Notes: generated by a model from the sequence alone, not told the origin. A DNA stretch of 6,751 nucleotides from Promethearchaeota archaeon (GCA_027031765.1 JALVPN010000035.1:1-6751), one strand, 5' to 3'. Numbered from the stretch's first letter, positions 3,027 to 6,751 are shown. Numbers and translations are program-made.

Positions 3027-4097
3027 CTATTCCTCCTGTGTCCCGACAACGCCACAGTGTGTGTAGTGGGCGTTGCGGGGCGGTCCCGATGATGGTGTGG
3101 TGGTCCCTGCTATGAAAGGCCCCCTGACATGTCCGTCCTCTCTTCCCGGACCCTCAGTGTGGGGGCTCGGGCCCCGTGTCGCCCCACATGATGTGCGTGC
3201 GCGGAGCCTGTTGGTCAGAACCGACATGTCTTCCACATGGTAGTGTGCTACCAGGACCATCAGTACACCCATAGAGGCGATGAACATCAACACCGTGATG
3301 ACCATCAGCGTGGCGTTCGAGAAGACAAAGTCGGGCCCCACAACCGACGGGTCCTCACCCACCTTGAAGTTCTCGTTGAGGAAGTTGAACAGTGTGTGCA
3401 TCATGACGGGGCCCATGAGCGACCGCCCACGTGCAAACCTCGCGTAATAGAGGCCCATGAACACTCCGAGAAGGGCCGACAGCACCACCATTCCCAATGC
3501 CTCGGCCACAGTGAGCAGCCGCCCGACATCGGAGAGGAGCGGCCACGTGAGGTGCCAGAGGCCGAACAAGATGGCTGAGCCAAGCACTGCACGCCCCATG
3601 GTGACCCGCGTCGCAAGTGCGTTCTGTATCAGGCCTCTGAACAGGGCCTCCTCCAGGAGGGCATTTGTCAGGAAGAAGAGTGCCGAGTACGGCAGCAGGT
3701 AGGTGGTGACAACGTACACCGCCAGCGGGTACTGTGGGTCGAACACCCCCGCATAGACCGCTGCCGACGCGACATCGGCGACCAGCCAGATAGAGACACC
3801 GAGCACCAGTCCCATCACGATGTGTGTCCGGAGGTGGTCTTTCGAGAGGCCCAGCACTGTCCTTACCTCACCACGTTGCCTCGACCAGAATACCACGATG
3901 AGGACTAGGAGTGGGAACAGTTTCGATGGCAGGATGTTCAGCCATGTGTCGCCCAGTCGTAGGACGAAAATATCCACTACACGCCATGCGAGCGCAACTG
4001 CAAACAGGACGGATGCGAGTTGCAGCAGGCTGGCCTGTGCCCACGGGGACACCGTCATAGTCTGTCTGCCACTACCACCGACTGCCGATGAGGCCAC
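3027..4097 (-). CDS. CPBP (Abi / type II CAAX protease) family intramembrane glutamic endopeptidase
   Basis: Canonical motifs EEALFRG (EExxxR), FGLWH (FxxxH) and HTLFN (HxxxN/D) in a multi-TM protein. GGTGA at 4103-4107 lies 5 nt before GTG 4097; ATG 4058 is an alternative start. Confidence 0.9.
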   Translation of the reverse strand: MASSAVGGSGRQTMTVSPWAQASLLQLASVLFAVALAWRVVDIFVLRLGDTWLNILPSKLFPLLVLIVVFWSRQRGEVRTVLGLSKDHLRTHIVMGLVLGVSIWLVADVASAAVYAGVFDPQYPLAVYVVTTYLLPYSALFFLTNALLEEALFRGLIQNALATRVTMGRAVLGSAILFGLWHLTWPLLSDVGRLLTVAEALGMVVLSALLGVFMGLYYARFARGRSLMGPVMMHTLFNFLNENFKVGEDPSVVGPDFVFSNATLMVITVLMFIASMGVLMVLVAHYHVEDMSVLTNRLRARTSCGATRGPSPHTEGPGREDGHVRGPFIAGTTTPSSGPPRNAHYTHCGVVGTQEE

Positions 4098-4130
4098 CAA
4101 TCTCACCTGCGGCTGTTCTCCGCCTGCTAC

Positions 4131-4138
4131 AATATAAG
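4131..4138 (-). promoter_or_regulatory. TATA-like box for the CPBP gene
   Basis: CTTATATT on the minus strand in otherwise GC-rich DNA, about 25-30 nt upstream of the GGTGA RBS. Confidence 0.45.
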
Positions 4139-4145
4139 GCCCAAC

Positions 4146-4151
4146 AAAAAA
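4146..4151 (-). terminator. Oligo-T tract, candidate archaeal terminator of dsrEFH
   Basis: GTGTTTTTTGTT on the minus strand about 50 nt after the dsrH stop. Confidence 0.4.
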
Positions 4152-4201
4152 CACTCTTCGGGCCCTGTCCCAGCTCAGGTGGCCCGGCGCCCGCCTGCAC
4201 A

Positions 4202-4501
4202 CTAGAAGCATATCACGCGGTCGTACCGGTCCATTACGAGGTCGACGATCTCAGGGTAGTCGACCAGCTCGAAGTCCGCCACCAGACGGTCACCAATGCC
4301 CCGCTGTTCCACGTGGGGACGCGACACGTACACCTTGACCCCCTCGATGTCTATCTCCTCGGACTCCGGACAGCCCTTGTCCGCAAGGAACACGCCGTCC
4401 TGGGCCAGGAGGATGCCCACCTCATGCCCGTGCTTCTTCAGCGCCTGCAGGGTCTCATCAAGGCTTGAACAGTCCGCTGAGAGCCAGATAAGGAACTTCA
4501 T
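4202..4501 (-). CDS. dsrH: DsrH/TusB family sulfur relay subunit
   Basis: ILLAQDGVF...VYVSRPHVEQRGI...VDYPEIVDLV..YDRVICF fits the DsrH/TusB pattern. It is third in the E-F-H cluster. RBS GAGGAGGT (4511-4518) overlaps the dsrF stop and favours ATG 4501 over ATG 4510. Confidence 0.85.
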   Translation of the reverse strand: MKFLIWLSADCSSLDETLQALKKHGHEVGILLAQDGVFLADKGCPESEEIDIEGVKVYVSRPHVEQRGIGDRLVADFELVDYPEIVDLVMDRYDRVICF

Positions 4502-4516
4502 CCACACCATACCTCC

Positions 4517-4867
4517 TCAGAATGTGATGACGACCTCGGCGTCCTCGAACACCTTCGCAACGCCCTCCTCGTCGAGGACCTCCACACCATCAATCAGCTC
4601 CTCAGGCGAGACCTTGCGCTCCCTGAGTGACCTCTCCGTGGTACAGATCCTGCCGTCGAAACTCCTGTACGTCGACTTGAACATCCTGATTGGGAGGTCG
4701 TCCATCCCTCGTAGCAGAGCATAGACACCGTCCGCCATGAACAGCATCGTCGGCTCGTGATCCATGCCGAACATGCCCACAGCCGCCCGCCACCCCTCAA
4801 AGTTGATGATCTTGCCGTACGGCTTGCTCCTGATGAGAATTAGTACGTTCCGTTCGGTGAACTCCAC
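4517..4867 (-). CDS. dsrF: DsrF/TusC family sulfur relay subunit
   Basis: VLILIRSKPYG...EGWRAA...LFMADGVYALL...SLRER...VVITF fits the DsrF/TusC pattern. GGAGGAGG (4874-4881) lies 6 nt before GTG 4867. Confidence 0.85.
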   Translation of the reverse strand: MEFTERNVLILIRSKPYGKIINFEGWRAAVGMFGMDHEPTMLFMADGVYALLRGMDDLPIRMFKSTYRSFDGRICTTERSLRERKVSPEELIDGVEVLDEEGVAKVFEDAEVVITF

Positions 4868-4886
4868 TGCGTTCCTCCTCCTGTCC

Positions 4887-5258
4887 TCACATCCCCAGCG
4901 TGATGAACCGGTCACACTCACCGACTATCTCTGCGAGCTCCGTCAGCCCCGTCACCTCGACACCACTGATAAAGTCCGCACCGCCCTGGTCGAAGCCCCT
5001 CGCACTGGTGCACAGGCCACACGCTTGGAACTCGACACCCATGTCTGCAAGCTCCTGCAGCCGGTCGTTCATGGGCCGGTCTGGGTCTGGGTCCTGGCCC
5101 AGTTTGGCATTGTTCACACCGTCAACGAACAGGAAGACCTTCACCTCGTGACCCTTCTCCACGGCCGCTCTGGCGAGCTCGTACAGCGTCTCACTGTTCT
5201 GGTACGTGTATGGGCCGCTGAGCAACAGTATACCCAGTGTCTTAGAACTCACCTGCAT
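4887..5258 (-). CDS. dsrE: DsrE/TusD family sulfur relay subunit with CxxC
   Basis: LGILLLSGPY...VFLFVDGV...ACGLCTSARG...GLTELAE..GECDRFITL. The first Cys aligns with the persulfide Cys of the TusD/DsrE C-x6-RG motif. GGAG precedes the ATG. Confidence 0.9.
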   Translation of the reverse strand: MQVSSKTLGILLLSGPYTYQNSETLYELARAAVEKGHEVKVFLFVDGVNNAKLGQDPDPDRPMNDRLQELADMGVEFQACGLCTSARGFDQGGADFISGVEVTGLTELAEIVGECDRFITLGM

Positions 5259-5530: not shown

Positions 5531-5603
5531 AGGAGATGGAGAAGAAGGGAAAAAAGAGAGGTGGGGGTGTTGGACAGGGCTTGCTGGCCCTGTCCTTGGC
5601 CCC
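5531..5603 (-). terminator. Hairpin plus pyrimidine/T6 tract after the small peptide ORF
   Basis: Perfect 9-bp inverted repeat GGACAGGGC (5572-5580) / GCCCTGTCC (5587-5595) with a 6-nt loop, extendable by GGGG/CCCC. On the minus strand it is followed by CTCTCTTTTTTCCCTTCTTCTCC. Confidence 0.6.
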
Positions 5604-5607
5604 TGTT

Positions 5608-5691
5608 TCAGAACGGATAGTCCGGGCTCGGGTCAGCAGGCACGCTGAAGGGGTAGTCCGGGCTCGGGTCAGCAGGTACGTTGTGCTCCAT
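5608..5691 (-). CDS. 27-aa small protein with two tandem 12-aa units (MEHNVPADPSPDYPFSVPADPSPDYPF); candidate repeat-core peptide precursor
   Basis: GGTGAT (5698-5703) lies 6 nt before ATG 5691. Three of the four differences between repeat copies are synonymous in this frame. TGA follows the second unit directly, then a hairpin and T-tract. In-frame GTG starts at 5733/5736 would add an acidic leader (DEPAHTHDTGDTL). Confidence 0.65.
   Translation of the reverse strand: MEHNVPADPSPDYPFSVPADPSPDYPF
5611..5682. repeat. Tandem duplication, 2 x 36 bp, 32/36 identical
   Basis: gaacggatagtccgggctcgggtcagcaggcacgct (5611-5646) versus gaaggggtagtccgggctcgggtcagcaggtacgtt (5647-5682), with a 23-bp perfect core. 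Confidence 0.95.
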
Positions 5692-5905
5692 CAGTGTATC
5701 ACCGGTGTCGTGTGTGTGCGCTGGCTCATCCACCACCCCGCAGACACAGCGGCAACCGGGAGGCCCCTGCTGCAAGACCCTTGCACCAGGACGCAGCCTC
5801 GCTGCACCAGAATGAATGAGCATAATAGGGCCCGTGCACAACGTAACGTGTCACACCGGGCAACGGCCACCACGCCGTGGCCGCCCGACTGAAGAGGAGT
5901 GCGTA

Positions 5906-6751
5906 GTGTGTGAACAGGCCCTGCTATGTGACTCTAGGGGTGTGCCACTCCCTGGCGTAGTCAGGTGGACACCCGATGGCCCGGTAGTCGTGCCTGAGGA
6001 CGGCCCCATCTCAGGAGAGGTATACTACTCCGTCGAGGATGAACTGTTCCCTGCTGAAACAGGGACGACGCTGAGAATCCCGACCAAACGGCGTGTCCTT
6101 GTGAAGTTCCCGCCACTCGTCGTCAGGCGCCTACCATATTGCTCCGGCGGCGAGATTGACACGACTGAGGACCTCTATCCCCGCTCCACTCACTCCTGGT
6201 ACGTCCGTTATCGGATTGGGCTGCGGGTCACCGGCGGGCCAGACCACACTTACGTCCTGCAGGAGGTACATGACGACGAACGGCTGTGGCTGACAGTCGT
6301 CGACCATGAGGGCAGGGTCGTCGAGTCCCACTGGGTTCACCCCTTTGAGGCCGGCCCGCTCCTCCTGGACGATGACTCCACCGCACTCCTCAAGATGTTC
6401 TCGGTCTCGCAGATGTCGCGCCCGGAGCTGCTCGGAGTACTTGATGGGCCCCCGCCACCACGGTCTGCCATGGTGCGCCTGATGGAGGGTGCTGACATCC
6501 CCATGGCAGGTGCCGGCGATGATGCCAGGTCCGTACTCACACCGCTCGTGCCGACATCGTTCACGCCACGCCAGCGCGAAGAGATGATGGCATTCCTCTA
6601 CCTGGTGGCAACAGGTCATACGGTACCGGACGACCCGCTGGTATTCCTGCAACGGTGCTTCAATGCGCCCTATCTCCGTGGCCTCCTGCTCAGACACTAC
6701 CGCTTTGTCCTCAGTGGCAGGCGGCCGCCGTCGTACGTCTCGGTCTTCCAC
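5906..6751 (+). CDS. Hypothetical protein, 5' part (runs off window)
   Basis: Frame 2 is open from 5816 to the window end. GAGGAG (5894-5899) lies 6 nt before GTG 5906. It translates as MCEQALLCDSRGVPLPGVVRWTPDG...VKFPPLVVRRLPY...HWVHPFEAG...FLYLVATGHTVPDDPLVFLQRCFNAPYLRGLLLRHY... with coding-like codon bias. It is absent from the ORF track because no stop is reached. Confidence 0.85.
   Translation, partial: MCEQALLCDSRGVPLPGVVRWTPDGPVVVPEDGPISGEVYYSVEDELFPAETGTTLRIPTKRRVLVKFPPLVVRRLPYCSGGEIDTTEDLYPRSTHSWYVRYRIGLRVTGGPDHTYVLQEVHDDERLWLTVVDHEGRVVESHWVHPFEAGPLLLDDDSTALLKMFSVSQMSRPELLGVLDGPPPPRSAMVRLMEGADIPMAGAGDDARSVLTPLVPTSFTPRQREEMMAFLYLVATGHTVPDDPLVFLQRCFNAPYLRGLLLRHYRFVLSGRRPPSYVSVFH

Follow-up and report, generated by a model that had tools for sequence, protein, structure and literature searches.

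A 27-codon micropeptide gene with a duplicated proline-rich core in an Asgard archaeon, and its putative Lrp-fold partner

Introduction

Can a reading frame of 27 codons, made up largely of two copies of the same eleven residues, be a gene, and if so, what might its product do? Genes of 11 to 27 codons escape standard annotation. Bacillota and eukaryotes have well-known gene-encoded peptide signals and co-regulators; to our knowledge none has been characterised in archaea. The frame that raises the question lies on the minus strand at positions 5608 to 5691 of what we call the window, the whole of a 6751-bp contig (C35) from a Promethearchaeota genome of 2.95 Mb in 229 contigs that is estimated to be 95% complete. 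The window sequence is matched by one DNA run only, from a hydrothermal vent metagenome, and no RNA run is listed for it. An earlier note on this DNA had proposed that the frame encodes a selected peptide with a duplicated core, and had pointed to multicore precursors of modified peptides or pheromones as a model. Here we ask whether the frame is a gene, whether it has relatives, and with what it might work.

Results

The frame runs from 5691 to 5608 on the minus strand and consists of 27 codons and a TGA stop (5610-5608). Its translation is MEHN-VPADPSPDYPF-S-VPADPSPDYPF-stop: a variable head of four residues, core 1 (5647 to 5679, minus strand), a serine linker, and core 2 (5611 to 5643, minus strand), with the stop codon directly after the last phenylalanine. 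Tandem Repeats Finder places a 36-bp unit at 5611-5680 of the window, in 1.9 copies with 91% matches and no indels. By direct codon comparison the two units differ at four sites, three of them synonymous (GTA/GTG, TAC/TAT and CCC/CCG) and the fourth an asparagine-to-serine difference at the junction (AAC/AGC), exactly as had been reported from the DNA alone. In the overlapping plus-strand ORF the same differences alter residues, and the remaining plus frames contain stops; these earlier observations hold as well.

Four substitutions are few, and we therefore set beside them a second locus, which a six-frame motif search of the whole genome revealed on contig C217. It encodes MNT-VPADPSPDYPF-stop, a single-core peptide; a relaxed version of the same search found no paralogs beyond C35 and C217. 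Core 1 differs from core 2 by three synonymous changes and from the C217 core by seven, with no residue changed, and core 2 differs from the C217 core at six bases. Across the three cores, 8 of 33 bases vary, without exception in third position and synonymously (hypergeometric P = 1.2e-5 for the third-position placement alone). The minus-strand frame is the sole frame that keeps the peptide identical over the three core copies. Outside the core, the two loci have in common a 14-nt TATA-like element, a Shine-Dalgarno sequence, and a hairpin with a T run that occurs at both but differs in sequence. Because their flanks are otherwise dissimilar while the core is kept, the object of selection is the peptide.

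We considered whether the repeat might instead be non-coding, as a protein-binding site or an RNA element, or might be the decayed tail of a longer gene. The ORF is shorter than the length at which gene callers operate, and in the window it can be extended in frame, in the 5' direction, to 77 codons. That extension, however, would begin outside the likely transcript, and at C217 an in-frame stop lies 3 codons ahead of the peptide ATG, so that at this locus the unit cannot be the remnant of a longer ORF. Scanned for Rfam families and tRNAs, the window gave no match. Above all, variation that keeps strictly to a period of three and is synonymous only is inexplicable by constraints on DNA or RNA, and the substitution pattern effectively refutes a non-gene reading. 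Judged by its substitutions, the 27-codon frame is a real and strongly selected micro-gene, which is presumably translated in vivo.

The surroundings of the frame are those expected of a gene with its own transcription unit. A GGTGAT Shine-Dalgarno sequence (5698 to 5703, minus strand) stands 6 nt ahead of the ATG and is perfectly complementary to the 16S rRNA 3' end of the same genome (contig C110, ending in ...GGATCACCTCCT); hexamers of this type (AGGTGA, GTGATA) are enriched 5' of long ORFs in this genome, and the C217 copy has GTGAT where the window copy has its Shine-Dalgarno sequence. About 130 nt 5' of the ATG is a TATA-like element, CCCTATTATGCTCA (5817 to 5830, minus strand), which has two exact matches genome-wide, each about 130 nt upstream of a peptide ATG, and which is probably a promoter element. 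Past the stop codon, a hairpin (5564 to 5603, minus strand; -26.3 kcal/mol, z -3.0) is followed, 8 nt from its stem, by a T6 run (5550 to 5555, minus strand) that is likely an archaeal transcription stop. A simple scan for bacterial terminators made no call at this hairpin and T run, because the run stands 8 nt away from the stem. The C217 copy also has a 3' hairpin, different in sequence from that of the window (z -4.0), and the 5' UTRs show no unusual degree of structure (z -1.1 and -0.6). Thus the ribosome-binding site, the stop right after the second unit and the hairpin with its T run, all of which the earlier note had listed, are present, and together with the TATA-like element they suggest an independent unit of promoter, Shine-Dalgarno sequence, 27 codons, hairpin and T run.

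We then asked if the peptide could be found elsewhere by its sequence. When 40 relatives were searched at the DNA level for the 557-bp intergenic region, nothing matched outside the genome itself, and a degenerate PADPxPDYPF pattern in 85 genomes of the family recovered only the genome's own three cores. The pattern DPxPDYPF followed by a stop gave 12 hits among 185,579 species, each represented by one genome, and 11 hits in 241 million metagenome records, chance-like or unrelated and none of them archaeal, and 15 hits in viral contigs, all unrelated. The relatives of the peptide were found through the gene next to it and not through the peptide sequence. The tBLASTn with the exact core that had been proposed earlier would not have succeeded: in the degenerate-pattern scans this core occurs in its own genome only. 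The variable core number and the conserved neighbour for which that check was to look do appear once relatives are reached through the neighbouring partner gene. The lesson is that micro-genes of this size are detectable through a neighbour rather than by a peptide-sequence search.

Two of the unrelated matches deserve a description. Ciceribacter sp. (NZ_JBHFEI010000003.1; L009:5144-5245, minus strand) encodes a 33-residue PqqA-like peptide, MAWKKP...EINMY..., that ends in DDPRPDYPF-stop, and pqqB- and pqqC-like genes come after it; that it has the same eight-residue ending as the archaeal core is either a curious coincidence or convergence. Seven IMG/VR contigs (L045, L046, L051, L052, L053, L056 and L058) have in common a recurrent 21-codon stop-to-stop frame, ...SFLST[H/R]YDPxPDYPF[D/G]E-stop, which is unrelated to the archaeal peptide and may belong to an RNA gene or be an alternative frame within a conserved gene.

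The neighbouring gene that led to the relatives begins in the window, on the plus strand (5906 to 6751), and encodes the N-terminal part of a member of a family of about 670 residues. Its start codon is uncertain: a GTG at 5906 stands behind GAGGAG, and homology begins at about 5951. The gene is split by an assembly break, with the rest on contig C82 (50-1081). Both parts match the family profile strongly (5951-6751, E 9e-76; C82, E 2e-82), covering profile positions 21-291 on C35 and 321-667 on C82, so that about 30 residues are missing. We call this gene the partner. It is present in 74 of 86 genomes of the family and in all 16 of 16 genera (14 of 15 in an earlier sampling). By profile, 54 of 59 family genomes encode it, compared with one weak partial hit in 192 genomes from other families of the same phylum. 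Its nearest Atlas clusters are from Thor- and Heimdallarchaeota, with scores that serve as leads only.

In relatives, an ORF of 11-66 codons lies just 5' of the partner gene, on the same strand, in 43 of the 56 loci examined. When a filter for proline-rich ORFs ending in P-[W/F] was applied, it found one upstream on the same strand at 29 of 36 distinct loci, compared with 1 of 39 on the opposite strand, none inside the gene and 1 of 27 downstream; among further loci, mostly second paralogs, 14 of 20 had such an ORF. These ORFs lie 20-410 nt upstream of the partner gene and have a Shine-Dalgarno sequence, mostly GGTGA or GTGA. The 44 collected peptides are 11-66 residues long, contain 24% proline and carry from 1 to 4 cores each. 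The usual ending is ...PEPW-stop, and the stop codon directly follows P-[W/F] in 37 of the 44. In the other 7, from 2 to 6 additional residues come after the last core, and a free aromatic C-terminus would there need trimming. The conserved neighbour of the peptide in relatives is the partner alone.

How does the window peptide fit into this set? The residue before the final proline is glutamate in 53 of 88 family cores and tyrosine in the window cores, which makes the window peptide a variant form. An intermediate between the PEPW and PDYPF types is found in one relative (G014), whose cores end in PDDPF and PDQPF; the peptide of another (G047) ends in TNPF, and a second-paralog peptide (G077) consists of two TPTDKPPEPW units. 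By these comparisons, the window peptide is a divergent member (PDYPF as against PEPW) of a proline-rich P-[W/F] micropeptide family of one Asgard family. As the exact core occurs only in its own genome, what connects it to the PEPW family is its architecture, its position and a shared motif style, P-D/E-x-P-F/W-stop, and not alignable homology, for which the peptides are too short and evolve too fast. The first impression that the peptide falls into no known class therefore needs qualifying: it belongs to a family-wide set, and of that set we found no description in the literature that we searched.

The mode of selection seen in the window genome recurs in these relatives. Where cores are repeated within single genes, we counted 31 synonymous and 2 non-synonymous codon differences, and 31 of the 33 changed bases are third positions. 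Among six orthologs from one genus, with the core HPGRPFxPEPW, seven codons vary synonymously and a single residue changes, while head residues 2-4 vary freely. As the core is constrained and the head is free, the functional unit is thus a core of about eleven residues behind a short unconstrained head, a layout that the window peptide shares. The internal cores are under purifying selection as well as the terminal ones. What had been argued from four substitutions in one contig is now carried by the 8 synonymous core differences of the genome (P = 1.2e-5), the unlinked second locus and the 31 versus 2 codons of the relatives; homologs exist, they neither drift at the residue level nor are frameshifted, and the frame is not the tail of a longer gene.

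We also compared how peptide and partner are arranged. In most relatives' loci, TATA-like elements (CCTATTAAGCTCC, CTAATAAAG, GTAATAAAG) lie at -130 to -140 from the peptide ATG, and in most a hairpin follows the stop codon, with a T run typically 52-75 nt past the stop. Further TATA-like elements precede many partner starts by 40-55 nt; these were seen by eye and were not caught by a regular expression. The elements, together with the hairpin and T run, suggest that peptide and partner are separate but adjacent units. The genes 5' of the pair vary by genus, among them a nitrilase-like gene, a rubrerythrin-like gene and a small wHTH protein (G004 and other loci), and the two-gene pair therefore moves as a unit. 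In the window, the peptide unit is inverted: about 215 nt separate the peptide ATG from the partner, and the two genes diverge, as opposed to the tandem same-strand arrangement at the 43 loci of relatives. They consequently diverge from a spacer of about 215 nt with one TATA-like element (5817-5830), which may double as a promoter for the partner gene. Inverted repeats around the locus fail to explain the inversion.

The second copy, on C217, has no member of the partner family beside it. Directly upstream of it is a gene (C217:4147-5358, minus strand) for a 403-residue protein that carries an AsnC-type HTH (PF13404, E 1e-14); eight genera conserve this protein, at 47-56% identity. BLASTP and profile-profile comparison found no significant relation between this protein and the partner family, and orthologs of the protein in relatives have no proline-rich P-[W/F] ORF alongside. 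On the 3' side of the C217 peptide are a gamma-carbonic-anhydrase-like hexapeptide protein and then a convergent M1 peptidase.

The arrangement in relatives raises the question whether the peptide acts in cis, on the ribosome that makes it. A proline-rich nascent chain with P-[W/F] at the stop codon might pause the ribosome, perhaps in a manner dependent on aIF5A or polyamines, and determine whether the hairpin and T run are read through; the downstream gene would be the partner in relatives and dsrEFH-like or gamma-carbonic-anhydrase-like genes in this genome. A documented pause motif of this kind is the C-terminal PPW of the AZIN1 upstream coding region, which is a polyamine- and eIF5A-dependent pause site, and PPW is also a prominent pause motif in bacteria without EF-P (PMC8705083). 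In keeping with a leader, the ORF of relatives nearly always shares the strand of the partner and lies directly 5' of it, a hairpin and T run separating the two; the stop directly follows P-[W/F] in most peptides, many cores contain PPP or PPE, and none of the peptides has an export signal. The likeness to pausing upstream peptides (the AZIN1 element, TnaC, and the proline motifs that involve EF-P or eIF5A) extends to a short ORF upstream of a putatively regulated gene, to a Pro-Trp end conserved at the stop, and to selection at the amino-acid level on about the last 11 residues.

Several observations, however, speak against a purely cis role. The core is perfectly conserved even though the window gene is oriented away from the partner and an unrelated gene follows the second copy. 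The archaeal motif is P-E-P-W, or P-D-Y-P-F in the window, not PPW, and the local core has no Pro-Pro at all. Internal repeated cores are conserved in the archaeal family and are as constrained as the terminal ones. The distance from stop to hairpin varies across relatives from 0 to 57 nt, TATA-like elements (noted by eye) lie between the terminator and the partner start at many loci, and the unit, with its probable own promoter and terminator, is both inverted and duplicated in the window genome. Finally, the cores of paralogs differ within one genome despite the same ribosome. We regard a cis-acting leader or arrest peptide as unlikely, if the strongest of the alternatives.

If the peptide acts in trans, the partner is the obvious place to look. 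The partner is not recognised by Pfam or NCBIfam, and a sequence-profile search of the PDB returned nothing significant. An AF2 model built on 31 orthologs (pLDDT 86, pTM 0.83) has a beta domain, a helical domain and then a tandem Lrp/AsnC-like module; the residues invariant in the family include the stretch AHRWPHxH. In this model, residues 319-656 match the tandem Lrp-like protein NirDL (4ch7) with a Z of 12.0 over 271 residues and a Foldseek E of 5e-5; single Lrp/AsnC regulators (2cyy, 2qz8) come further down the Foldseek list. By its predicted fold, the C-terminal half is a tandem Lrp/AsnC-type module, in which a winged helix and a RAM/ACT-like ligand domain occur twice. A likeness to Lrp/AsnC (FFRP) regulators, with their winged HTH and RAM (ACT-like) domain, is thereby given at the level of predicted structure, and the fold suggests a ligand-sensing, possibly DNA-binding protein. 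The best structural match is an enzyme, siroheme decarboxylase, so that the Lrp fold is no proof of a regulator role.

The N-terminal half, comprising the beta and helical domains, gave a best Z of 5.1 in fold searches and Atlas TM scores below 0.33, and so no convincing match to a known fold. The helical domain (residues 182-325) shows a weak run of matches (Z 4-5) to zincin metallopeptidases (M1, M4, M36, M61 and M60-like), which we treated as noise because the family has no HExxH. Were these matches real, the helical part would be a pseudo-peptidase domain and an attractive candidate for a peptide-binding site.

Discussion

The reading that we favour is that the peptide is a trans-acting partner or ligand of the Lrp-fold protein, and we put its probability at about one half. 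Within the cell, that protein would have the peptide as its cognate ligand or partner; specificity would come from the eleven-residue core, and the key contact would be made by the aromatic C-terminus. A multi-core peptide would yield several copies of the ligand if cleaved behind W/F, or would serve as a multivalent ligand, and peptide and partner together would form a small regulatory circuit in which the partner might bind DNA. We favour action in trans because the linkage to the partner is both family-wide and specific, and we prefer it to action in cis because the window gene is inverted relative to the partner and an unlinked second copy encodes the identical core. A hairpin and T run that belong to the peptide unit and close it, and TATA-like elements ahead of many partner starts, weigh in the same direction. 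Paralogous partners in one genome are accompanied by different cores, each kept among its orthologs, and for this reason a co-evolving partner fits better than an invariant ribosome.

Could the target be some protein other than the neighbour? The peptide might act in trans as a short linear motif for a domain that recognises a C-terminal Y/x-P-F/W or [D/E]-P-[F/W], the Lrp-fold neighbour doing no more than regulate the peptide gene. Such a role would suit the unlinked second copy. Acidic, proline-rich motifs with an aromatic end, such as DPF, DPW and NPF, are familiar in eukaryotes, and the cores resemble them, down to the TNPF and DDPF endings of two relatives (G047 and G014). Against this, no candidate target was identified, and so close a linkage to one gene family, throughout the archaeal family, is explained most simply by a direct functional pair. 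We think such a role improbable, somewhat more so than a cis-acting leader.

Identical cores in variable number also call to mind the precursors of modified peptides and pheromones, which was the model put forward in the earlier note. Multi-core precursors are found among cyanobactins, dikaritins and the yeast alpha-factor; biarylitide BytA is leaderless, and MftA and PqqA are cofactor precursors with a C-terminal aromatic residue. The archaeal genes are similar in having from 1 to 4 identical cores across genomes and paralogs, a very small size and an invariant C-terminal aromatic residue. The cores would then be cut behind W/F, possibly modified by the 670-residue protein or by unlinked enzymes, and exportable. 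In one three-core peptide the last core, too, is trailed by two linker-like residues, which points to a cut after each W; the partner's C-terminal half has its best match in an enzyme of Lrp-like fold, and almost leaderless precursors have a precedent in that of biarylitide, at 5 residues.

The evidence nevertheless goes mostly the other way. Pfam and NCBIfam scans of the neighbours at both loci and of the partner found no RRE or tailoring domain, and neither locus, nor those of relatives, has a linked gene for a radical SAM enzyme, YcaO, lanthionine synthetase, ATP-grasp, P450, protease or transporter; the sole conserved neighbour of the archaeal peptide is a Lrp-like fold protein. The peptide has no leader or export signal, its head being limited to 3-4 variable residues, and no follower after the last core of the window peptide; it lacks the Cys/Ser/Thr-rich or other typical core chemistry. 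The conserved His, Trp and Arg of the partner family have no known catalytic meaning, and in relatives the peptide does not have the window's CPBP protease and dsrEFH-like genes next to it. The multicore precursor model thus loses most of its ground, and we consider it the least probable of the ways in which a translated peptide might work here.

Taking the peptide as a trans-acting ligand of the partner, we compared the pair with known systems. In RRNPP-type cassettes of Bacillota and their phages (Rap-Phr, PlcR-PapR, NprR-NprX, AimR-AimP), and likewise in Rgg-SHP and ComR-ComS, a tiny, fast-evolving peptide gene adjoins a gene for a cytoplasmic sensor or regulator, as appears to be the case here. 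Further points of likeness to RRNPP systems are paralogous pairs in one genome with distinct peptides, and a functional part that is a short C-terminal segment, often aromatic. The differences are equally clear. The C-terminal half of the partner is predicted to be Lrp/AsnC-like, not TPR, and Pfam and fold searches found no TPR. The archaeal peptide is without a secretion signal or propeptide, with just 3-4 residues ahead of the core and without a hydrophobic stretch; archaeal peptides go down to 11-15 residues, tandem cores are possible, and the host is an archaeon. By analogy, then, the module is most like the bacterial peptide-receptor cassettes, yet it is without their defining TPR receptor and exported propeptide, and we know of no close precedent for a directly translated intracellular ligand of 12-27 residues.

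Peptide and partner together look like an undescribed module. A bolder formulation, which we offer tentatively and at somewhat less than even odds, is that of a private, fast-diversifying intracellular peptide code, in which directly translated proline-rich peptides of eleven residues, aromatic at the C-terminus, would be the cognate ligands of lineage-specific Lrp-fold sensors with a novel N-terminal half, and tandem cores would be multivalent or multi-copy ligands. If this is true, archaea would have their first described peptide-receptor regulatory system, and for the first time an Lrp/RAM-type module would be seen to read a gene-encoded peptide instead of an amino acid. What the window contributes is the PDYPF variant, the inverted arrangement and the unlinked single-core copy, and hence the argument against a purely cis role. 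No prokaryotes are closer to eukaryotes than these archaea, and the case for a micro-gene that they keep beside a conserved partner is statistically strong; it is directly testable, as a synthetic 11-mer and one recombinant protein suffice. Whichever way it turns out, the biology would be new for archaea: an Lrp-fold sensor with a peptide ligand, or a Pro-Trp ribosome-pausing leader like the eukaryotic PPW element.

The remaining genes of the window are ordinary and unlinked to the peptide in relatives. The dsrEFH-like, CPBP protease and membrane genes were considered as a possible maturation system and rejected, as they are not neighbours of the peptide in relatives. They include three DsrE/DsrF/DsrH-like genes in a row (4202-5258, minus strand) and a Rce1-like CPBP intramembrane protease (3027-4211, minus strand). 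On the plus strand, the segment 1253-2185 gives a weak hit to the NIF3 family.
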